A stretch of DNA of 18,115 bases from a virus (lineage: Duplodnaviria; Heunggongvirae; Uroviricota; Caudoviricetes), in the IMG/VR virus record IMGVR_UViG_2579778982_000016, positions 1-18,115 of that record. The stretch is one strand, 5' to 3'. The translations under genes were made by a program, and so were the position numbers. Positions 2,913 through 17,787 of the stretch are shown here, one piece after another; the stretch's first letter is position 1, and each line of letters opens with the position of its first letter. The notes under the pieces are model-generated. The model had not been told where the DNA came from. It made no database searches and saw only the letters and a list, made by a program, of their open reading frames with translations.

Positions 2913-4166
2913 ATGGCTAACCAATTAGCAAAAGACCTTGAAATCATGTTCGAAAACTACGTTGAAGGCTTTGAGGCCGCCTGCGTAGTTTCCCGTAACG
3001 CTAAAAAATTCCGTCCCGGTGATACAGCAATGCAGCGAGCAGGTGATGTTCTGTATCGTCCGCAGCATTACCACATGAACATTGAGGAAGGCCTAGACCT
3101 CAGCGGCAAAACGCCAACAGCACTGGTTCAGCGCCTTGTTCCTTCTGTGTTCAAGGAGCCGAAAAACATTCTGTACACTCTGGATGCGCGTGAAATGCGT
3201 GACCCGGAACATAAAACTGAAGCTGGTCGCGCCGCAGGTATGCGCCTTGCTGCACAGATTGACTCTGACCTGATTTCCATGGTCACGCAGCGTGCTACTA
3301 ACGTGATCACAATGGCTGACTCAACCACTGGTTCACAGGGTCGTGATTTGTGGAACTGTGCGGCAGGTATTGATGCCACCATGACGGCGATTGGTGTACC
3401 ACAGGGTATCAACCGCCGCTCTTTCTGGAACCCCTTCAACTACAAAGACCTTGCTGGCGAGCTTGGTCACCGTGCCTATGCTCAGGGCGCAACCCTGACA
3501 GCATACGAAAAAGCGCAGATCCCTCCGGTTGCGTCCTTCGATAGCTACAAGACCGATATTTCTGGTCGTGTTCCGAAGGGTACAGCAACTTCCATTACGC
3601 TGGCAGCAGCACCTGCGCACAAGGTTGAAGCGAAAGATGCTAACGAAATGCCAGTGGATAACCGACAGGGGACCATTACGGTATCTGCTGAAGGTTTGCA
3701 GGTTGGCGATGCGTTTACCATCGCAGGGGTGAATTCCGTACACCAGATCACCAAAGATACCACCGGGCAGCCGCAGGTATTCCGCGTTCTGGCAGTTAGC
3801 GGAACGACAGTAACTATCTCCCCGAAAATTCTGCCGCCTGACAACGCGGATGTCGCCAGCCGTCCATATGCAAACGTTGATGCTAATGCGGCAAGTAGCG
3901 CAGCAATCACCATTCTCAACAAAAATGCCGCACCGGCTAACCTGTTCTGGGCTGATGGTTCTGTTGAACTGATGTACGGCAAACTGGCGTTCCCGACTGG
4001 TCAGGGTCCACAGGTAATGACAGCAACCACCGAGCAGGGCGCTACACTGATCATGTCTTACGCCTTCGACCACATCAAAGGCGTAACCACTGCGCGTTTC
4101 ACCACTCTGTACGGTTGCTCTGTACTGGTTCCTGAATATACGGGCATCGTTATTGCCGGGCAGTAA
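2913..4166 (+). CDS. major capsid (coat) protein, P22 gp5-like
   Basis: 417 aa, directly after scaffold, GGAG RBS 9 nt upstream. Length and several segments (e.g. ANLFWADGS, PYANVDAN) resemble remembered P22/Sf6-type coat proteins. Followed by a strong intrinsic terminator. Confidence 0.88.
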   Translation: MANQLAKDLEIMFENYVEGFEAACVVSRNAKKFRPGDTAMQRAGDVLYRPQHYHMNIEEGLDLSGKTPTALVQRLVPSVFKEPKNILYTLDAREMRDPEHKTEAGRAAGMRLAAQIDSDLISMVTQRATNVITMADSTTGSQGRDLWNCAAGIDATMTAIGVPQGINRRSFWNPFNYKDLAGELGHRAYAQGATLTAYEKAQIPPVASFDSYKTDISGRVPKGTATSITLAAAPAHKVEAKDANEMPVDNRQGTITVSAEGLQVGDAFTIAGVNSVHQITKDTTGQPQVFRVLAVSGTTVTISPKILPPDNADVASRPYANVDANAASSAAITILNKNAAPANLFWADGSVELMYGKLAFPTGQGPQVMTATTEQGATLIMSYAFDHIKGVTTARFTTLYGCSVLVPEYTGIVIAGQ

Positions 4167-6266: not shown

Positions 6267-6967
6267 TGGCGGATTCGAATCTCAATGTGCCGGTAATCAT
6301 TCAGGCTACACGGCTCGACACATCAGTCCTTCCACGCAATATCTTCTCGCAGTCGTATCTGCTTTACGTTATCGCACAGGGCACTGATGTTGGTAACGTG
6401 GCTAACAAGGCCAACGAGGCCGGACAGGGCGCTTACGATGCTCAGGTGAAAAACGATGAACAGGATGTCGAACTGGCTGACCACGATGCAAGAATCACCG
6501 CAAACACAAAAGCGATAAATCTCCTTGAGGTCAGGTTAACAACCGCCGAAGGGAAGATAGTCGTACTGCGTAGCGATGTTGATTACTTGCTGGATGAGGT
6601 TATCGATATTCAGGCGCATCTGGTCACTGTTGACCAAAGACTGGATGGCGTAGAAAGCGATGTATCTGACATTAAGAGTGATTACGTATCGAAAACCGTA
6701 ACCGAATCGCAGTCTCTTGCGTCACCGCTGGATGTAAAAACATCATATTCAGTTGATGGAATTCAGGTTGTTGGAGCAAGAAATACCGGATGGACTGCAG
6801 CCACAGGTACACCTCTTCTTGGCTCATTCAACGCTAACCAGTCATACACGGTCGGCACTACGTACACACAATCCGAAGTCGCGGCTCTCGCTACAGGTTT
6901 GCAGCAGGCGCGGCAGCGTATTCTGGCGCTTGAAACAGCACTTAGATTACATGGGCTGATTGACTGA
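6266..6967 (+). CDS. tail needle protein (P22 gp26-like)
   Basis: 233 aa. N-terminus (VIIQATRLD...[20 protein letters not shown]...[24 protein letters not shown]) and C-terminus (QARQRI.ALE.ALR.HGLID) match the remembered P22 gp26 trimeric coiled-coil needle. TGATG overlap with the next gene. Confidence 0.9.
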
Positions 6968-7422
6968 TGATTACATTCAAACCAACGCGAAACATCGACC
7001 TGATAGAAGCAGTCGGAAATCACCCCGACATTATCGCCGGGAGCAACAACGGTGATGGATACGACTACAAACCTGAATGCCGTTACTTCGAGGTGAACGT
7101 GCACGGGCAGTTCGGCGGCATTGTTTACTATCAGGAGATTCAGCCGCTGACATTCGATTGCCACGCCATGTACCTGCCAGAGATTCGCGGATTCAGCAAG
7201 GAAATCGGGCTGGCGTTCTGGCGATACATTCTGACCAACACCACCGTTCAGTGCGTCACATCATTCGCTGCACGCAAATTCCGCCACGGTCAGATGTACT
7301 GCGCAATGATTGGCCTTAAGCGTGTAGGAACCATCAAGAAATACTTCAAAGGCGTGGATGACGTGACGTTTTACAGCGCAACACGCGAAGAACTAATCGA
7401 CTTCCTGAATCACGGGAGATAG
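6967..7422 (+). CDS. head assembly / ejection-associated protein (P22 gp14-like)
   Basis: 151 aa; between tail needle and the ejection-protein genes as in P22. Called on synteny. Confidence 0.6.
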   Translation: MITFKPTRNIDLIEAVGNHPDIIAGSNNGDGYDYKPECRYFEVNVHGQFGGIVYYQEIQPLTFDCHAMYLPEIRGFSKEIGLAFWRYILTNTTVQCVTSFAARKFRHGQMYCAMIGLKRVGTIKKYFKGVDDVTFYSATREELIDFLNHGR

Positions 7423-7424
7423 CC

Positions 7425-8117
7425 ATGTTATATGCATTTAAGCTGGGCAGAAAACTGCGCGGCGAGGAACCTTATTGCCCTGAAAAAGGCGGGAAAGGTG
7501 GCAGTTCTGATAAAAGCGCAAAGTATGCAGCAGAAGCTCAGAAGTATGCCGCAGACCTGCAAAATCAGCAGTTCAACACCATCATGAACAACCTGAAGCC
7601 GTTTACTCCTCTGGCTGATAAGTATGTCGGCAGCCTCGAGAACTTATCGTCTCTGGAAGGGCAAGGTCAGGCACTTAACCAGTATTACAACTCTCAGCAG
7701 TACAAAGATCTTGCTGGTCAGGCTCGCTATCAGAGTCTGGCGGCAGCGGAAGCAACGGGTGGATTAGGTTCCACAGCAACCAGTAATCAGTTAGCAACAA
7801 TCGCACCAACGCTTGGTCAGCAATGGCTATCTGGACAAATGAACAATTACAACAACCTGGCAAATATCGGTCTTGGCGCTCTTCAGGGGCAGGCAAACGC
7901 CGGGCAAACATATGCCAACAACATGAGTCAGATTTCACAGCAAAGCGCGGCGCTGGCTGCGGCAAACGCCAACCGACCGTCAGCATTGCAGCAGGGGGTT
8001 AGTGGTGCTGCATCCGGTGCGCTTTTGGGTGGTGGCATAGCCAGTGCTCTCGAGCTATCAACTCCGTGGGGTGCTGGTATTGGTGCTGGTCTTGGTCTGC
8101 TTGGTTCACTGTTTTAA
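7425..8117 (+). CDS. ejection (injection) protein, P22 gp7-like
   Basis: 230 aa; Q/N/A-rich with a glycine-rich hydrophobic C-terminus (GALLGGGIASALELSTPWGAGIGAGLGLLGSLF); first of three consecutive ejection-protein genes. Confidence 0.75.
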   Translation: MLYAFKLGRKLRGEEPYCPEKGGKGGSSDKSAKYAAEAQKYAADLQNQQFNTIMNNLKPFTPLADKYVGSLENLSSLEGQGQALNQYYNSQQYKDLAGQARYQSLAAAEATGGLGSTATSNQLATIAPTLGQQWLSGQMNNYNNLANIGLGALQGQANAGQTYANNMSQISQQSAALAAANANRPSALQQGVSGAASGALLGGGIASALELSTPWGAGIGAGLGLLGSLF

Positions 8118-8127
8118 GGGTTAATCA

Positions 8128-9513
8128 ATGGCTACGTGGCAACAGGGTATTAATTCTGGTGGTTTTCTGGCTGGCATCGGTACGCAAAATGAGAATGCGC
8201 CAAAGGCAAGCGACATTAACGCAACGCTTGGTCTGATCCGCGAAAACAATGAACTGGCTCGCTCAGGTGCAAATAACGTTGGTCTGACCGCGTTACGTGG
8301 TCTGGCTGGAGTTGCTGATATTTACAATCAGGAACAGCAACAGAAAGCTATTAGTGCGTTCAATAAGGTTCACGCTGATGCATGGGCTTCTGGTGATCCA
8401 TCGGGACTATTTAAGTTTGCCCAGGAAAATCCAGCGTTTGTTGCACAGGCACAACAGGCGTTTTCCGGTCTTAATGATCAGCAACGCAACGATATGGGCG
8501 ATTTAGCCATGAGGGCTAACGTCGCTCTTTCTCAGGGACCGGAAGCCTACAGTAAATTCATTACTGACAACAAGGACAGGTTAAATCGCGTGGGTGCGAA
8601 TGCTGACTGGATGATTCAGACAGGTATCCAGAATCCAGAGCAGCTATCACACATGCTGACTACTATGTCTCTCGGTGCGCTTGGACCAGAAAAGGCGTTT
8701 GCTGTTCAGGACAAGATGGCTGGTCGTGAAATTGACCGAGGCAGACTGGCAGAGACAATCCGCAGCAATCAGGCTGGAGAAGCACTTCAGGCGAGAGGGC
8801 AAAACCTTTCCTATCAGTCAGCAATGACTGGACACGGACTTGCAGCAGAAAGACTGGCACTTGATAAGCAGAAATTCGGTTTTGAAGTACAACAGGCACA
8901 AAAGAAGGCCGATGAACTTATTAATGCTGCGCCAAAACTATCCGTGAACATGGAAAAGGCTATAGAAAAATCAGCAGGTGATGCGGCAGCTAGTCGTAAT
9001 GCTGCCGATTCAATGACAACGCTTGCTGACACGCTTGAGAAGGAGAAGCCAACTCCTGGTTTGTTCGGTAACGCTGAAAATATGTTCTCTAAGCTTACGG
9101 GGCAAGATAACTACCTCCGAGATGTGCGGATTAGATTCAACCAACTAGCCAATGCGCAGGCAACCAAGCTTCTCCCTCCCGGCCCTGCATCAGATAAGGA
9201 TATTGAGTTTGCAAGGAAAGGCATTCCAAGCGAAACGGATAATCCAATGGTTATGGCTCGATGGTTAAGGGGTATGGCAAAAATGGAAAGTAATAACGCG
9301 AAATTCAACGAGTTTAGGTCAGAGTGGATGAGTGCAAACGGCAGCCCAGGACAATCTGATCGCAACCGAAACATCATGGGGATGGATGTTAAGAAGGGTG
9401 AATCATTGAACTCTGCGGCAAAACGTTTTCTTTCCTCAAGTTATGGCGATAGCCAACCTCAACAGCAATTGTCCGATGACGAATTAATTAGCAAATATCT
9501 CGGAGGGCAGTAA
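8128..9513 (+). CDS. ejection (injection) protein, P22 gp20-like
   Basis: 461 aa; second ejection-protein position; TAATG overlap with the next gene. Confidence 0.75.
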
Positions 9514-11339
9514 TGGCTTATAGTCGTGAACAATTGATGACGGCGTTAAGGAATGCTGATGCTGCTGGTGATACTGAGGGAGCACGTCGCATTGCTCAGA
9601 TGCTGTCTTCTGGTGATCAATCCACTCAAAACCAATCGCAGCCAGAAGAACAATCTCTGGTAGGAAAAGCTACTGACTGGCTCACTGGTGGTCAAAGTGC
9701 AGGGCAAATTGCTGAACAGGCTGGTCGTGGTCTGGTAAACATACCATTTGACGTATTGCAGGGTGGTGCAAGTCTGATTAATGCAATCAGCCAGGGGCTT
9801 GGTGGCCCAAAGGTTTTGGATGATGTTTATCGTCCAGTAGACAGACCGACAGACCCCTACGCTCAAGCTGGAGAAACAATTGGCGGGTATTTAGTTCCAG
9901 GAGTTGGAACGGCAGGAAGCATGGCTATTGGATCACTGGCAGAAGCCGCAAATCAGAAAGGCGATTTCGCGCAAAATGCAGCAAGAAACGCCGGAGTTAA
10001 CCTTGCCGCTCAGGGGGTTCTTTCCGCAGCAGCAAAGGGAATAGGGCGTGGAATAACGGCTATAAAAGGTGATATTGCGCCAGAAGTGGCGAAGAAAATT
10101 GCCACATCAGAATCGATGGGCGTGACACCAATGACATCTGATGTTATCCCGCCGAAAAATGCTTTCACTCGCGGCCTTACTCAGGATGCCGAGGGGGCTT
10201 TGCTCGGGACAGGCTCAAAGCGAGCTGAGCAATATGCAACGCGTAGTAAGCTGGTAAGTAATTATTTTGACCGTTTTGGTGAGTACAACCCTGATGATGT
10301 GGTGAAATCTCTGACCACCACGTTAAGGGGGCGGAAGGATGCCGCTGGCGCTGTTATCAATGACGTCACCAATAAAATGGGTAATGCCGCAGTTGATACC
10401 ACAAATACCATGAATGCTCTGAATACAGCGATCGCAAGACAGGAACGGCTTGGGACGTCTGCCAATCAAAGCCTGCTTACATCCTTGCGTAACCTACGTG
10501 AAGAATTAGCAAACCCTGCAACTGATTTGGATGTTACGTTTGATCTCTTGCGTCAGCACAGAACAGCATTTAGATCTAATGTTCAGGGAGATGCTATGGT
10601 CTTCCCCAACCAGGCAAAAGCAGCTACCAATATGGTAGAGAATGCAATGTCAAAAGACCTTCGTAACGCAGTTGCTAAAAACCTCGGTGCATCAGACGCA
10701 GCAAAATACCTTAAAGCAAATTCCGATTATGCAAACGTTTATAATAAGGTGCTTAATAAAAACATTGCTAACAAGCTCAACAAGGCAAGCAGTGAAGCCA
10801 GTCCTGAACTTATAAATACCGTTGTATTAAGCAGAAAACCATCTGACGTTAAACGAATCTGGAGCGCATTGGATGATAATGGGAAAGATGCTATGCGTGC
10901 AGCTTACGTCAGCAAAATAGCGGAAAAGGCCGGGGACTCTCCAGCCAAGTTCATCACTGAAGTTAATAAGCTGAAATCTCAGTCAGGCGGTGAAATTTAC
11001 AACACTATTTTTTCTGGAAAGCACATGAAAGAGCTTGATGCTCTTCATGAAGTTCTACAGCAAACAGCAAGGTCAGACACCGCAAATGTAGTAACTCAGA
11101 CGGGGCAATCGCAAGCCAACAGGATAAGGACGATTGGCGCAACTGCGACTCTTGGGGCAACACTGGCGCTTGAATCTGGTTTCGGTGCAATGATGCGCTT
11201 GTATGAATCCAAAGCCGCAAGGAATGCGCTCTTACGTCTGGCAAACACTAAAGCTGGAACGCCAGCCTATGAAAGAGCGCTGAATAACGCCGCAAATGCC
11301 ATCAGACCAATACTTGCCAATGATGCAACTGATCGCTAA
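9513..11339 (+). CDS. ejection (injection) protein, P22 gp16-like
   Basis: 608 aa against a remembered ~609 aa for P22 gp16; third ejection-protein position; last gene of the conserved late block. Confidence 0.8.
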
Positions 11340-11360
11340 GGGTTGATGTCATGGATGTTG

Positions 11361-11999
11361 TTAATTGCGAATGGAATCGCGGAACTCTTTACTTGATAGA
11401 AAAGGATCTGTTCTCCTTAACTCATCATAGTTTTTATTAAACTTTCTTGCTTCACCAGGGTATCTGTTGAACAAAACATTGCAGAAAAAAGAGAGCAATA
11501 ACTCACATATGAATGCTAATATCCTGAAAAATAAAGGTATAAAAAGAAGGAAAGGTTCATTGAAGTCTCTATTCCAAACAAAATAGACAATCATCCCGAC
11601 ATACCAAATTGATATCCCTATACTGATGATTGTTCCAACAGAGGTAACTACGATCCCGATTAAGTCGGACAGTCTGTTTGCCAGTAACTCATTTGAGTAT
11701 CTTGCAATCATATACCGCCAACATTTTGCAATATCATCCTGATCTGTAGAGTCTTCTGGAATGGCTAGGCTTCTACATATTGAAGCAGCTCTTTTTTTCT
11801 CAACTCTTTTTGAGAGCCATCCATTAAAGAGATACATCAACACCTGCGTTGCTATTCCTGCACCAAGTGATATCAAAGACATCCCCAAAAATCGCCACCC
11901 TGGAGATAGTGACTGGTACTGCCAAACAAAAAAAATTAAAAAACCTAATGATCCTATGACATAGGCTGATGTATCGCTATATATATCTATTTTTTTCAT
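11361..11999 (-). CDS. multi-pass inner-membrane protein, candidate superinfection-exclusion protein (sieA-like by position)
   Basis: ATG at 11999 (complement) preceded by GGAGTGG with 7-nt spacer; the tracked ORF's upstream extension lacks an RBS. About 4 hydrophobic helices (AYVIGSLGFLIFFVWQ, FLGMSLISLGAGIATQVLMYLF, IGIVVTSVGTIISIGISIWYVGMIVYFVW, FLLFIPLFFRILAFICELLLSFFCNVLF). AT-rich, opposite strand, convergent on gp16. Occupies the slot where P22 carries sieA. Confidence 0.6.
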   Translation of the reverse strand: MKKIDIYSDTSAYVIGSLGFLIFFVWQYQSLSPGWRFLGMSLISLGAGIATQVLMYLFNGWLSKRVEKKRAASICRSLAIPEDSTDQDDIAKCWRYMIARYSNELLANRLSDLIGIVVTSVGTIISIGISIWYVGMIVYFVWNRDFNEPFLLFIPLFFRILAFICELLLSFFCNVLFNRYPGEARKFNKNYDELRRTDPFLSSKEFRDSIRN

Positions 12000-12066
12000 T
12001 GAGTAGCCACTCCTTAGTTTTGAGCAGGATACCAGATGATAATGTGTAGTTGGAGTAGCGCGGTTG

Positions 12067-12160
12067 TAATGCAAGCATTTTGTTTTAGTTTTATGCTTGC
12101 TTGTATGTGTGTACAGTGCATATAATGCAAGCATACATCACAACAAAGGTGCTTGCATTA
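12067..12160. promoter_or_regulatory. divergent promoter/operator region with repeated inverted repeats
   Basis: TAATGCAAGCAT occurs at 12067-12078 and 12123-12134, each followed 14-15 bp later by its inverted complement (ATGCTTGC at 12093-12100; TGCTTGCATTA at 12150-12160). Sigma70-like -35 TTGCTT (12097-12102) and -10 TATAAT (12121-12126), 18-bp spacer, point at the 12160 gene. Confidence 0.55.
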
Positions 12161-13146
12161 TGACTGAAAAGAAAAGTGGCGAAGGGAAAGCTAAGGGTGG
12201 GATCGCTCGCGCAAAGTCGCTGACTAAAGAGCAGCGTTCTGAAATAGCAAAGAAAGCAGCGGCAAAACGATGGGAAGGTAAGCCACTAAGAGCGATCAGA
12301 AAGGGTAACTTCATTGATGATTTCGGCATTGATGCAGAATGTTACGTACTTGATGATAATGATAAAACGGTTGTAGTTAGTAAAACTGGTCTGGCTAAAT
12401 TACTAGGAATCGGTGAGCATGGTAGGGATGTAGACCGTTTTCTAAATACGAATTATATGGCTGATTTTGTCGATCCATTTTTGCTAGAAAAATTCAAAAA
12501 ACCTCTTATTTTTCAATGGAGAAGTCCGGTCCCAAACTCAGCCCCAAATCCACTCGCTGATGAGGCTCACGGTTACGATATTGCCCTTATCGGCGATATA
12601 GCCACAGCAATGATTAATGCCGATCGAGCTGGCGCTCTACCGCCTTCAAGATCAAAATCTGCCAGCCTTGCCCAAAGACTTGTTACCGCATCAATGAAAG
12701 CAGGGCTTAAAGGACTTGGTTATGCTATTGCAGGATATCGACCTGAAGTACAGGAGGTTATTGATTCCTTCAAGGCCTTTGTTCGTGAAGAGGCGAGGCA
12801 GTATGAAAAAGAATTTCCAGATGAGCTATATGAGGAGTGGTATCGACTGTACGGCCTGAACAGGCCAGAGAAAGGACGTCCAATTCGTTTTGGGCAGCTA
12901 ACCAACATGCAGATATACACTCCTCTAGCAAAGAGTAAAGGTAAAATCCTTGAACAGATTCGAGCCAGCCGAGACGAGAACGGAAAACAATCTGATAAGT
13001 TGCACCTGTTCCTTTCTGAAATTGGTGTCAAGGCTTTGCGTCAGCATATCGGTAAGCTTCTTGGTGTCGCAGCGATGAGCGAGACAAGAGAAGAATACGA
13101 AAAAGGAATCGAAAAGGTTTTTGGAAGAATAAAACCAGAAATCTAA
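12160..13146 (+). CDS. hypothetical protein (328 aa) with basic N-terminal motif, possibly P63C-domain family
   Basis: ATG at 12160 preceded by AAAGG; the tracked TTG start at 12097 lies inside the promoter repeats. N-terminus KGGIARAKSLTKEQRSEIAKKAAAKRWEG resembles a short basic motif I recall at the start of phage proteins annotated P63C; family assignment unverified. Confidence 0.6.
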   Translation: MTEKKSGEGKAKGGIARAKSLTKEQRSEIAKKAAAKRWEGKPLRAIRKGNFIDDFGIDAECYVLDDNDKTVVVSKTGLAKLLGIGEHGRDVDRFLNTNYMADFVDPFLLEKFKKPLIFQWRSPVPNSAPNPLADEAHGYDIALIGDIATAMINADRAGALPPSRSKSASLAQRLVTASMKAGLKGLGYAIAGYRPEVQEVIDSFKAFVREEARQYEKEFPDELYEEWYRLYGLNRPEKGRPIRFGQLTNMQIYTPLAKSKGKILEQIRASRDENGKQSDKLHLFLSEIGVKALRQHIGKLLGVAAMSETREEYEKGIEKVFGRIKPEI

Positions 13147-13451: not shown

Positions 13452-13988
13452 TCAAACAACCCACCAGTTTGCCTGATTGGATACCAGCCTTGCAGTTTTT
13501 ATGGAATTAATTATGCCATGCTCAAGAGCCTTGTTAGCATCCAAAATGGTCGAGTCTGCTATCAGGGATGCCCACCTAATATGGGTTCCGATGTCGATAT
13601 TGAACGTCTCAACGAAGCGATCAAGATCGTTATCGAGGCATTTCCCGTACTCTCTCAATCTGGCATGGTCGGCGGCTGGGGTGGCAAAGCCCCATAATAG
13701 AGGATGTAACAGGAATCTTGATAATGGGTTTGCGAAACGTTCTGAGCCAGCCAGGAAAACGATATTAGCTATGGATTCAACATTGCTTATGTTGTGAGTT
13801 CTAACGGTAACAGGGAGTGACTTAAGAAAGTTATACGCAGTAAAGCCAGCGGCAGTTTCCCCTCCCTGACTTGATATATGGATATTTAATTCAGTTGCGC
13901 CTTGAGATAATGCGGTGAGACAGTGGTTCTGAAGTTGCCCAACAGTGGCGGTGTTAACGGGGCATAAGAAATGAATTGTGTGCAGCAT
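13452..13988 (-). CDS. ClpP-fold serine protease-like protein (178 aa)
   Basis: Translation aligns by eye along its length with E. coli ClpP core: IHISSQGGETAAGFTAYNFL vs INSPGGVITAGMSIYDTM; VRTHNISNVESIANIVFLAG vs [20 protein letters not shown] (catalytic Ser aligned); FLLHPLLWG vs VMIHQPLGG (catalytic His aligned); TILDANKALEHGIINSI vs FLSAPEAVEYGLVDSI. Start ATG overlaps the mnt stop (ATAAATAATG) with AAGGA upstream. Confidence 0.65.
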   Translation of the reverse strand: MLHTIHFLCPVNTATVGQLQNHCLTALSQGATELNIHISSQGGETAAGFTAYNFLKSLPVTVRTHNISNVESIANIVFLAGSERFANPLSRFLLHPLLWGFATPAADHARLREYGKCLDNDLDRFVETFNIDIGTHIRWASLIADSTILDANKALEHGIINSIKTARLVSNQANWWVV

Positions 13989-14236
13989 TATTTATCATCC
14001 TTACCATACATGGTTTTCAGCGTCTCCAGCAGCGCCTCTTTGAATTTGTCAGCTTCTTGCTGAGCAAATGACTCAACTGACTTTGGCGACCTATCTTCAT
14101 CAATCGCGGCTTGCAAAATCATGACGATCTCGGAGTTAACAGAGCGACCATTTTTTGATGCTCTAACAGCAAGAGCCTCGCGCAAAGATTCAGGGATTCT
14201 TACCGTAGTTGGAGAAATTGACACACCCTTTGCCAT
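13988..14236 (-). CDS. mnt: Mnt-like ribbon-helix-helix repressor
   Basis: 82 aa; N-terminal RHH with the NGRSVNSEI signature shared with P22 Mnt (NGRSMNSEL) and Arc; charged C-terminal helix for oligomerisation; divergent from arc-ant as in P22 immI. Confidence 0.8.
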   Translation of the reverse strand: MAKGVSISPTTVRIPESLREALAVRASKNGRSVNSEIVMILQAAIDEDRSPKSVESFAQQEADKFKEALLETLKTMYGKDDK

Positions 14237-14350
14237 ATCACACCTTTGGTATTCAATTTGATATCAAAGTGTATGCAAAAAAATTTTGACTAGATATACT
14301 CACTTTGCTATCTTTTGTATTCGAAAAGAGTTGTTTGCGTGGAGGGTAAC
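14237..14350. promoter_or_regulatory. divergent Pmnt / Pant control region with candidate operators
   Basis: Perfect 12-bp palindrome TTTGATATCAAA at 14257-14268. Rightward -35 TTGACT (14286-14291) and -10-like TATCTT (14309-14314), 17-bp spacer, ahead of arc; GGAGGG RBS at 14341-14346. Confidence 0.55.
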
Positions 14351-14503
14351 ATGGAGAAAGAAATAAGTAAGATTTTGGTAAGGATGCCGCAGTCGTTAAA
14401 GGATGCTATCGGTAGCAGGGCAAAGGAAGAGTGCAGGTCGTTTAACTCAGAGGTTATCAAGCGCCTGATAGACAGCCTGAAGAGAGAGGGGGTAACGGTG
14501 TGA
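14351..14503 (+). CDS. arc: Arc-like ribbon-helix-helix repressor
   Basis: Internal ATG at 14351 with GGAGGG RBS gives 50 aa, close to P22 Arc (53 aa). MPQSLKD...SFNSEVIKRLIDSLKREG parallels P22 Arc MPQFNLR...SVNSEIYQRVMESFKKEG. Confidence 0.75.
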   Translation: MEKEISKILVRMPQSLKDAIGSRAKEECRSFNSEVIKRLIDSLKREGVTV

Positions 14504-14673
14504 TTCGCTTGGATGCAGTAGTCAAAGAGATTGCGATTACCATTTTAAGACCAAATTTTGTTCATGGCGAATCATTTGGCACGAACGAAAAATTGAGAAG
14601 AGAAAGAGTATTCAGTGGCAAGCGCACGTTTTCAGAAGTGATGCTTGATGCGGCAAAGAAATCAAAACAGTGA
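14500..14673 (+). CDS. possible small ORF (57 codons, GTG start) in the arc-ant intergenic region
   Basis: GTG at 14500 overlaps the arc stop (GTGTGA), with GAGGGGG 8 nt upstream. Frame is open for 57 codons to TGA at 14671-14673. Below the ORF-track length cutoff. No homology recognised; could be non-coding spacer hosting a sar-like antisense RNA. Confidence 0.25.
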
Positions 14674-14735
14674 AGCCCCAACTGCTGGAACAGTCAGGGC
14701 TTCGGTTGTCGGTAAATCCGTGGAGAAAAACCAAC

Positions 14736-15638
14736 ATGAATAGTATAGCAATTTTAGAAGCAGTGAACACCTCTTACGTGCCATTCAACGGTCAGCAAAT
14801 TATCACCGCCATGGCTGCCGGAGTTGCATATGTTGCGATGAAGCCAATCGTTGAAAACCTCGGAATGAGCTGGTCAACGCAGCAAACAAAACTCATGAAG
14901 CAGATTAGCAAATTCAACTGTGTTCATATGAACATGGTTGCCGCTGATGGTAAGCTTCGTAAGCTACTCTGCCTTCCTTTGAAGAAGTTAAATGGATGGC
15001 TGTTCAGCATCAACCCTGAGAAAGTTCGTGCTGACATCCGCGATAAACTGATTCAGTACCAGGAAGAATGCTTTACTGTGCTGCATGACTACTGGACAAA
15101 GGGAGAGGCAGCAAATGCACGGAAGAAAACATCTGTTGATGACAGGACTCCGCTTCGTGATGCTGTAAATATGCTAGTCAGCAAAAAGCATCTAATGTAC
15201 CCAGAAGCTTATGCAATGATTCATCAGCGTTTCAATGTGGAAAGTATTGAAGAGCTTGATGCATCTCAGATACCACAAGCAGTAGAGTACATCCACAGGG
15301 TAGTGCTTGAAGGTGAGTTCATCGGCAAACAAGAGAAGAAAACCAACGAGCTTTCTGCAAAAGAAGCAAACAGCCTTGTATGGCTATGGGATTATGCCAA
15401 CCGCTCACAGGCATTATTCCGCGAACTGTATCCGGCGCTAAAACAAATTCAATCGAACTATTCCGGCAGATGCTACGACTACGGTCATGAATTCTCGTAT
15501 GTTATCGGAATGGCGAGAGACGTTTTAATAAACCACACACGAGATGTTGATATTAATGAACCAGACGGACCAACGAATCTTTCCGCATGGATGAGACTTA
15601 AGAATAAAGAATTACCTCCTTCAGTACATAACTACTGA
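14736..15638 (+). CDS. ant: antirepressor Ant
   Basis: ATG at 14736 gives 300 aa starting [21 protein letters not shown], which matches my recollection of P22 Ant in sequence and length; follows arc as in immI. The tracked GTG start at 14670 is probably an artefactual extension. Confidence 0.85.
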
Positions 15639-15738: not shown

Positions 15739-17787
15739 ATGACAGACATTACAGCCAATGTTGTAGTAAGCATGCCTTCGCAACTCTTCACTATGGCTCG
15801 TTCTTTTAAAGCCGTAGCCAATGGCAAAATTTATATCGGTAAAATTGACACGGACCCGGTAAATCCTGAAAACCAGATTCAGGTTTATGTAGAGAATGAA
15901 GACGGTTCTCACGTTCCTGTTCCGCAACCAATCATCATTAACGCCGCTGGATATCCGGTATATAACGGACAGATTGCCAAGTTCGTAACTGTGCAAGGCC
16001 ATTCTATGGCTGTTTATGATGCGTATGGTTCGCAGCAGTTCTACTTTCCTAATGTGCTGAAGTATGATCCGGATCAGCTAAGACATGAGCTAGCGTCGGA
16101 AGCGGGAACAACTTTAATAGGGAAGGGTGATCGAACTCTTGAAGAGTACTTAGAATCAAGCAAGGAAGATTTTGATAACTCATGGAAGAGATATGTAGGT
16201 AAATCTACAACGACACAAAAAGATAGCGCATACTCTGGAGCGGCTCACTACCAACCAGTTAGCGATGATGGGAGCGCAATTGGTAATTATACATTTGAAT
16301 CACCGGTGATTGTTGACTTCTCATCTACATCAGATTGTGTTATGCCAGATTCTGGTGTCGTTTTCAAAATGGGAGCTAATGGACTTACAAGTGGTAATTA
16401 TTTTTCTCAAGATAATTACCACTTAAAAAATGTAACGGCAATTGGCGGCACTCCTGAAATTGTTACATTTGAACCATACACAGGATTGACAGCACTAGTA
16501 GATGGTGTTCGCATTATAAATAATGGCTCTCCAGACAAGACCGCTATTAATTTTAAAGGACAGAACTGGTGGCCTACAGTATCTAATAATATATTTAAAG
16601 ATTATACAGATAAAAGAGGAAATTTTTGCAAGGCAATAGATGACGGAGGAGATTTATCTATAAGAAGGAGTGGGAATAGTAGATTGCTTTTCACTGGAAA
16701 TAAAGTCTACTTTGGTGGGGATGCTCTTGGTGGTACGATGTTGAAAGCCAGCGCTGTCTTTAATATTATAAAAGATAATGCCTGTGAACACGGAGAGAAC
16801 GCGATTGTGTTTGAGTACCCATCATCATTCTCAGTTGTCGACGGACTTTACACAGAATGTTCTTTTGGTGGTGGTAATCAGATAGTAATTGGTGACAAAG
16901 AACCTGATCCTAATATTGCAACAATGAATATGATTGGAATAACTATTAAGAATGTTTATTTCAATAATCATTCACATTCATCAAATAGGCTAATCAAATC
17001 TGGAAATGAAACCGTAAGAATAGACAGGTTAATTGTTGATAATATAATTGTCACAAATGCAAATGTTGCATCGCCAGTTATTGAGTTGAATGATGTTCCC
17101 GGGCAATCGATTTGTGTCGGAAATGTATACTCTGGAGTTTCACTAATAAATAAAACAAGCAATGCTGTAAAAATAATAGATATGAATAATAATTTTATTA
17201 AATCGCTAAATGGTAATTTAGCGTCTTCGGGGGGGGACTCCGCAACAGTAAATAATTCTAGAGAAAAAGTATTTGGTAACTTTTTTATTCAATCAACAGG
17301 AAGTTTGTCAGTTAGCAGATATGCAAGTGGTAATCAGTATCAAAAAAATAGAGAGTCAAAGAACTACGCGGCTATAACCATAGTTCCTAATACTTCGTGC
17401 GGTTTTGAGTGGCAGAACCCAAGATATTCAGACCTATCTGGATCTATAGCAACAGTTCAGTTTCTAGCCAAAGCAAGCACTACAGTGAGTGCAGTAGTTT
17501 TAGTTAAATACAAGAACAGTTCTGGAGGTGACACGCTTGCAGCATCATCAATTAGTATTAATGGTGGTGATTTTCAGGAGTTTACTATTCCATTCTTTGC
17601 TAACCGCAATGATGATGATGATTCTGTTCTCTCTGTTGATATTAGATTTGAAAATACATTATCAAGCATTGTTTTTTATGTTTGTGCTTTTAGATTAAAC
17701 AGGGGGGATACAGGACTATGCCGGTCTGCTAATGATTATACGACAGGAGAGATTGATGCAGAGATATCAAAATTCACATTTTATTAA
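15739..17787 (+). CDS. tailspike protein: P22 gp9-type head-binding N-domain fused to a divergent receptor-binding domain
   Basis: First ~113 aa ([60 protein letters not shown]...[11 protein letters not shown]) are near-identical to the remembered P22 tailspike head-binding domain. The remaining ~570 aa are unrelated to P22 gp9, AT-rich, with beta-helix-like G/N/V/I-rich repeats. GGAG RBS upstream. Confidence 0.9.

Follow-up and report, generated by a model that had tools for sequence, protein, structure and literature searches.

What does the AT-rich membrane gene beside the DNA-ejection genes of this prophage encode? The initial annotation of the window, as we call the whole 18,115-nucleotide stretch of viral DNA analysed here, had placed a multi-pass membrane protein in the slot where P22 carries sieA, and had suggested that it may belong to a different exclusion-protein family at the same locus. 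The question is whether the gene is sieA itself, another exclusion gene, or a membrane gene of some other kind. The gene under study is:

11361 to 11999, minus strand: putative sieA, type B (stop codon included), an ORF of 212 residues for a predicted inner-membrane superinfection-exclusion protein, assigned by PHROG, BLASTP and identity to an HS1 protein

The ORF lies on the minus strand at these positions as had been described, and translation from the ATG at 11999 gives 212 residues. The mechanically called ORF is longer, running from 11361 to 12134 on the same strand, and an upstream ATG at 12134 would open a protein of 257 residues. This 45-codon extension was rejected: it has no ribosome-binding site, the similarity to E. 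coli HS ends within it at 12047, RefSeq annotates the 212-residue form in two E. coli genomes, and 8 of 11 aligned homologues have an MKK start at the position of the shorter form. The gene does have its own ribosome-binding site, as claimed, in the form of AAGGAG at 12015 to 12010, 10 nt 5' of the ATG. Because of this site, the RefSeq calls, the MKK starts and the end of the HS similarity, the ATG at 11999 is the credible start. The lower G+C content that had been noticed holds as well, with 36.3% in the sieA ORF against 46.8% in the window, 47.4% in the gene-16 homologue and 43.9% in the P63C gene. E. coli, Salmonella, Yersinia and Serratia all carry homologues of 52–98% identity, whose alignment has 61 invariant columns, and this conservation in four genera indicates a real gene rather than a chance ORF. 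An identical protein is encoded on 786 contigs from E. coli and Salmonella, and this speaks for an allele that is maintained and functional.

The window corresponds to the end of the late operon in a P22-like prophage, and these features surround sieA in it:

7425 to 8117: gp7 (PHROG)
8128 to 9513, plus strand: gene-20 homologue, ejection protein of 461 residues (PHROG 917, E = 3e-189), of the other protein class that is implicated as a target of SieA
9513 to 11339, plus strand: gene-16 homologue, ejection protein of 608 residues (PHROG 770 'DNA transfer protein', E = 1e-261), of the class that SieA acts against when it comes from an incoming phage
11340 to 11360: spacer of 21 nt between the convergent gene-16 and sieA stops, read from the sequence
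12160 to 13146: P63C-domain gene, divergent from sieA, with its ATG at 12160 (Pfam)
13452 to 13988, minus strand: ClpP-like serine-protease-domain protein of 178 residues (PF00574, E = 4e-12)
13988 to 14236, minus strand: Mnt/Arc-like ribbon-helix-helix gene (Pfam)
14315 to 14503: Arc-like gene (Pfam)
14670 to 15638: Ant homologue (PHROG)
15739 to 17787: tailspike (PHROG)

The sieA gene thus lies between the gene-16 and gene-9 homologues and is convergent with gene 16, and the P22 interval has the order gene 16, sieA (convergent), orf59a, mnt, arc, ant, gene 9. The gap between the gp16 and sieA stop codons is 21 nt in the window and 22 nt in P22, so that the placement in the sieA slot, convergent with the ejection genes, is borne out as the P22 arrangement. 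The 21-nt spacer at 11340 to 11360 holds no terminator-like hairpin.

The ejection genes resemble those of prophage HS1 of E. coli HS more closely than those of P22. The gene-16 homologue is 98.6% identical to HS1 gp16 and 75% identical to P22 gp16; the equivalent of P22 G532 is kept, and Ala stands in place of P22 P546. The gene-20 homologue is 98.9% identical to HS1 gp20, and P22 gp20 aligns to residues 1–242 only, the C-terminal half of the window protein having no alignment with it. At the DNA level, window positions 6967 to 12047 (gp14, gp7, gp20, gp16 and sieA) form one block of 5.08 kb with 98% identity to HS1, and the flanks of this block show much lower similarity or are unrelated. 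Its right breakpoint lies 48 bp 5' of the sieA ATG, just past the leader and the hexamer TATCAT described below. The last 280 bases of the window match DNA beside intS of another E. coli prophage. A coupling of SieA type to gp16 type was considered and rejected, since a gp16 95% identical to that of the window adjoins a type A SieA elsewhere and also adjoins two unrelated cargo genes. In the immunity region, the ClpP-like gene lies directly downstream of the Mnt/Arc-like repressor gene, its start overlapping the repressor-gene stop; at this position P22 has orf59a only, and one would not expect the immI region to contain a Clp-like protease gene that is co-transcribed with mnt.

To the question of family, database searches gave a consistent answer. 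The protein matches PHROG 7745, 'superinfection exclusion SieA-like', over residues 45–191 (E = 1.7e-20), and the alignment to P22 SieA that the initial annotation had called for gave 41 identities in 148 positions by BLASTP (28%, E = 2e-24), with window residue 44 corresponding to P22 residue 14. A tblastn search of 50,697 phage records matched 38, all of them Salmonella P22-type phages, and the only functional annotation at the matched loci was sieA (identity 27%, query coverage 75%, E ~1e-6). When the region was compared with the phage collection by megablast, the flanks were matched and the gene itself was found in no phage at the DNA level. A Pfam-A scan returned sub-threshold matches only (DUF3918, Vma12, DUF2530 and DUF3810), none of which is a transporter or holin family. 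Pfam entry PF26849.1 is precomputed for all type B relatives and gave no match in the local scan; it may be absent from the local Pfam copy.

The architecture of the protein was then compared with that of P22 SieA, with topology judged by hydropathy and the positive-inside rule. The relevant features are:

11916 to 11972, minus strand: predicted extra N-terminal transmembrane helix, residues ~10–28, which sets type B apart from type A (hydropathy, model and BLASTP register)
11469 to 11900, minus strand: three predicted transmembrane helices common to P22 SieA (residues ~34–56, 109–143 and 148–177) and the loop between the first two (hydropathy, AlphaFold2)
11433 to 11471, minus strand: SieA family motif FxRYPxEAxxFNK, here FNRYPGEARKFNK, residues 177–189, directly after the last transmembrane helix (translation and regular expression)

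A Kyte-Doolittle scan with a 17-residue window found four hydrophobic segments (residues ~10–28, 34–56, 109–143 and 148–177), the N-terminal one peaking at 1.76 at residues 10–26, and an AlphaFold2 model built from 12 sequences has helices at residues 9–27, 33–77, 105–143 and 149–177 (mean pLDDT 77, pTM 0.60). Four hydropathy peaks and four modelled helices thus agree with the earlier count of about four transmembrane helices. The loop between the first two P22-shared helices (residues 57–108) is basic, and since the 10 K+R within residues 56–112 agree with the positive-inside rule, it is probably cytoplasmic. The predicted periplasmic loops are short, at ~6–8 residues. The proposed topology thus has four helices, an N-terminus on the cytoplasmic side and cytoplasmic placement of the two large hydrophilic regions. 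The pattern F.RYP.EA..FNK matches both the window protein and P22 SieA, and 10 of the 13 motif residues (F177–P181, E183, A184 and F187–K189) are invariant in an alignment of 12 type B sequences. This motif is common to all SieA types and is predicted to be cytoplasmic (PMC10883804). In the type B alignment the invariant residues fall mostly in predicted cytoplasmic regions: W94-R95-Y96, R100-Y101-S102 and N108–S111 precede the third helix, and the motif and the tail SSKEFRDS follow the fourth. A fold search of the model against PDB and BFVD gave no match (best E = 2.6), and the fold comparison adds nothing on the mechanism.

Two readings other than SieA can be weighed on these data. A different, non-SieA exclusion family that merely occupies the sieA slot would account for the low identity to P22 SieA (27–28% over the 148–159 residues that can be aligned) and for the empty local Pfam-A result, and unrelated families do fill the same slot in other P22-like phages. 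We regard it as highly improbable, because the homology to P22 SieA is statistically clear both pairwise and against the PHROG profile, the motif and the three transmembrane helices common to both proteins line up with those of P22 SieA, the exact 13-residue motif excludes a compositional alignment, and the literature classes the 98%-identical HS1 protein as a type B SieA. A generic membrane protein, such as a housekeeping transporter or a holin, is a reading that a small, multi-pass, AT-rich membrane ORF might suggest, and it has next to no probability: Pfam yields no match over threshold, NCBIfam and PADLOC scans of the protein yield none at all, structural searches of PDB and BFVD find nothing better than E > 2, the gene lies outside the lysis cassette, and it occurs in a P22-like prophage context. 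No Imm, Sp or transporter family was matched in Pfam at E <= 1, so that neither the Imm/Sp-type relationship that had been raised nor the transporter homology that had been named as evidence to the contrary was found. By its alignments, the window protein classes as a diverged but clear SieA homologue of type B. Its 98% identity to the HS1 reference, set against 28% local identity to P22 SieA, fits the type B pattern of close identity to HS1 SieA and ~25% identity to type A. The proposal of an exclusion protein in the sieA slot therefore stands, given the 98% identity to HS1 and the homology to SieA, and the proposal of a different family does not, in view of PHROG 7745, the P22 SieA alignment and the motif.

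The closest relative that has been tested experimentally is the protein of E. coli HS prophage HS1, which shares 208 of 212 residues (98%) with the window protein. The E. coli HS chromosome holds a single match to window positions 11300 to 12200, at 98.1% DNA identity, which is annotated as a 212-residue 'hypothetical protein' and is convergent with a gp16 homologue. We regard its equation with EcHS_A0321, the HS1 gene that was tested, as secure, on the grounds that it is the sole match in the HS genome and agrees in position, length and N-terminal extension. The HS1 protein was named "type B SieA" (Leavitt et al. 2024, mBio 15:e02169-23, PMC10883804). HS1 sieA alone, in single copy at galK in Salmonella, conferred full exclusion of P22, L, MG40, MG178 and LP7, and a hybrid phage with HK620 ejection proteins was blocked partly by HS1 SieA and likewise by P22 SieA; the exclusion spectra of types A and B are indistinguishable (PMC10883804). 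P22 SieA was located in the inner membrane by fractionation, which was done with FLAG-tagged P22 SieA only, and it blocks K+ release and DNA injection of P22-like phages only (PMC10883804). Mutations that escape P22 SieA map to gp16 and gp20, those in gp16 being in its C-terminal region (PMC10883804). A P22 triple escape mutant carries G532W and P546S in gp16 together with G350D in gp20.

Taken with the homology and context, we hold it very probable that the window gene is the sieA, type B, of a P22-like (Lederbergvirus-type) E. coli/Salmonella prophage and that its product blocks P22-like DNA delivery across the inner membrane. The window allele, four residues away from HS1 SieA, would be expected to behave like it. 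The four-helix protein, presumably a product of prophage expression, would be located in the lysogen's inner membrane and would prevent adsorbed P22-like phages from delivering their DNA across it through their gp7/gp20/gp16 conduit. The likely route would be interference with how the trans-envelope conduit formed by incoming gp20 and gp16 assembles or works; alternatively, SieA might mask a host inner-membrane partner of the conduit, such as YajC. The molecular contact of SieA with its target is in either case one that we infer. Because most invariant residues are predicted to be cytoplasmic and the periplasmic loops to be only ~6–8 residues long, SieA would more probably act inside the membrane or on its inner side, the presumed place of gp16 insertion, than as a plug in the periplasm. 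A conserved cytoplasmic side and short periplasmic loops are hard to reconcile with a simple periplasmic 'plug' of gp20.

A SieA homologue could also have a real role other than DNA-entry exclusion, for example as a membrane moron for prophage or host physiology or as a modulator of late read-through transcription into the tailspike gene. It is the predicted cytoplasmic face that holds most of the conserved residues, induction brings an increase in sieA transcription, and deletion of the P22 sieA region was reported to improve tailspike synthesis after induction (PMC10883804 supplement). The tailspike effect, however, concerns the DNA region and its transcription, not the protein, and HS1 sieA by itself at galK fully excluded five P22-like phages, which makes exclusion a demonstrated activity of type B SieA. 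We therefore consider a different role quite unlikely and retain superinfection exclusion as the preferred reading.

Expression of sieA in its present upstream context is assumed, because no sigma-70 consensus promoter was found upstream of sieA on the minus strand (7/12 was the best score of a relaxed scan) and the HS1-like sequence reaches no further than 48 bp upstream of the ATG. Two elements lie within the part shared with HS1:

12036 to 12041, minus strand: TATCAT, a hexamer resembling a -10 element, adjacent to the conserved leader on its 5' side and kept in the HS1 copy
12010 to 12033, minus strand: conserved leader of 24 nt that has the Shine-Dalgarno sequence at its end (GGTATCCTGCTCAAAACTAAGGAG), with one match in the window against 0 expected

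The HS1 similarity ends 6 nt upstream of TATCAT, which is a possible -10 element of a sieA promoter. When folded, the leader RNA of the window showed no significant structure (z = -0.48); that of P22 folds somewhat better (z = -2.4), and the two have no structure in common. An Rfam scan of positions 11200 to 12300 returned microRNA-like matches only, far below gathering scores, and these are due to the inverted repeat at 12067 to 12160. The divergent intergenic region between sieA and the P63C gene (12067 to 12161) holds four copies of the near-palindromic TAATGCAAGCAT / ATGCTTGC(ATTA), arranged as two inverted pairs at 12067 to 12078, 12093 to 12100, 12123 to 12134 and 12150 to 12161, and these repeats overlap a TATAAT at 12121 to 12126. 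By their layout they look like repressor operators that might control the P63C gene.

The leader is not confined to this gene. P22 sieA is preceded by these 24 nt as well, one base being variable, though the two proteins are only ~28% identical. Copies of the leader (GGTATCCTGCNCAAAACTAAGGAG) were located at 12010 to 12033 of the window (minus strand), at 3933 to 3956 of locus L001 and in IMG/VR loci L004 to L123, an exact-pattern scan of IMG/VR giving at least 120 loci; the pattern had no match in a collection of one genome per species. Among the matches listed, an ORF of at least 40 residues starts just after the leader in 117 of 120 IMG/VR loci, and these 117 ORFs form at least 13 clusters that show no BLASTP similarity to one another. 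The two SieA types, A and B, are counted as one of these families, which leaves at least 12 further ones, and SieA of either type accounts for 8 of the 117 ORFs among the matches listed. Ten cluster representatives scanned against PHROG gave seven different 'unknown function' families, or none. At least one hydrophobic segment is present in 11 of 13 representatives, and several have a signal-peptide-like or lipobox-like N-terminus. Most of the families are predicted envelope proteins, and the cargo includes a secreted protein of 129 residues, a lipoprotein of 161 residues and an hkcB-like protein of 107/109 residues. All 11 representatives with informative flanks lie beside convergent ejection-protein genes, with mnt, ant or the tailspike gene opposite. 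Upstream, the flanks form at least 13 sequence classes that are freely combined with the cargo clusters among the matches listed.

At the 3' junctions, a CCATCCATGGC-like linker follows many cargo genes, and the spacer at 11340 to 11360 of the window holds, on the minus strand, an ATCCATG that resembles it. The 5' linker of the slot consists of a leader of 24–33 nt that includes the ribosome-binding site and the start (…GGTATCCTGCNCAAAACTAAGGAG, as a rule with GTTGGTGTG next to it). Gene 14 of phage epsilon34, which is homologous to HK620 hkcB, also has the leader in front of it. In some relatives (IMG/VR loci L027, ~7619 to 7700, and L062, ~3591 to 3680) a second small hydrophobic ORF (MVTVG…) begins beyond the 3' linker of the first cargo gene, its ATG being preceded by GGGAGG or GGAG, from which it follows that the slot can hold two cassettes in tandem. 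In Escherichia phage JEP4 (MT740315.1, locus L124, 1537 to 1748) the leader is followed by ~210 bp of unannotated DNA and then by the gene-16 homologue; the annotation of this record has probably overlooked a small cargo ORF. The combination of a constant leader with changing cargo is observed. As to its meaning, we tentatively conjecture that the sieA position is a cassette-exchange slot with conserved linkers, and that the hkcB homologues and the remaining families form a pool of alternative proteins for exclusion or envelope modification, exchanged through recombination at the linkers; we rate this as possible rather than probable. High variability of this interval is known already, under the name 'ant moron' (Villafane et al. 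2008, PMC2629481), and no description of the shared leader was found in the literature searched, the coverage of which was incomplete.

There is little new in the gene itself, since the exclusion activity of type B SieA was published in 2024, and the exclusion experiment that the initial annotation proposed has in effect already been done on the nearly identical HS1 SieA. The value lies rather in annotation. The 90% cluster of the window protein has 189 members, and every listed name is 'hypothetical' or 'uncharacterised protein'; because the names are uninformative and no NCBIfam or PADLOC model exists, surveys of defence and exclusion genes will miss type B SieA. Lysogens that carry the window sieA should be refractory to P22-like phages, and this effect on host range bears on generalized transduction and on the use of phages for typing or treatment in E. 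coli and Salmonella. The shared leader offers a cheap means of harvesting candidate exclusion genes from P22-like prophages.

Several small envelope proteins encoded by phages likewise stop the DNA entry of related phages, among them the inner-membrane blockers T4 Imm, HK97 gp15, phi80/N15 Cor (with an outer-membrane target) and Streptococcus Ltp. HK97 gp15 and Ltp are cited in the type B study (PMC10883804). Imm-type and other DNA-entry blockers show neither a sequence relationship (Pfam, E <= 1) nor a fold match to the window SieA. P22 SieA (type A; 162/164 residues) is homologous to it, with 28% identity over 148 residues, and has in common with it three transmembrane helices and, following the last of these, the FxRYPxEAxxFNK motif; its gene likewise lies convergent after gene 16, and leader and ribosome-binding site match those of the window at 23 of 24 positions. 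Relative to P22 SieA, the window protein has an N-terminal extension of 30 residues with a fourth transmembrane helix, and a C-terminal tail that is ~18–20 residues longer (…DELRRTDPFLSSKEFRDSIRN) and is kept within type B. An N-terminal extension with an additional predicted transmembrane segment is described for types B and C, being ~30 residues long in type B (PMC10883804). HS1 SieA agrees with the window protein in length (212 residues), in the motif and in its position beside gene 16, and the four substitutions between them (L62I, A72T, F150S and I159V, window versus HS1) all lie outside the motif. The two loci differ in the DNA upstream of -48, which in the window holds the divergent P63C-domain gene and four operator-like repeats; a same-strand helix-turn-helix gene takes this place in HS1. 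Judged by sequence, the window gene is a further copy of an already known and experimentally characterised SieA type.
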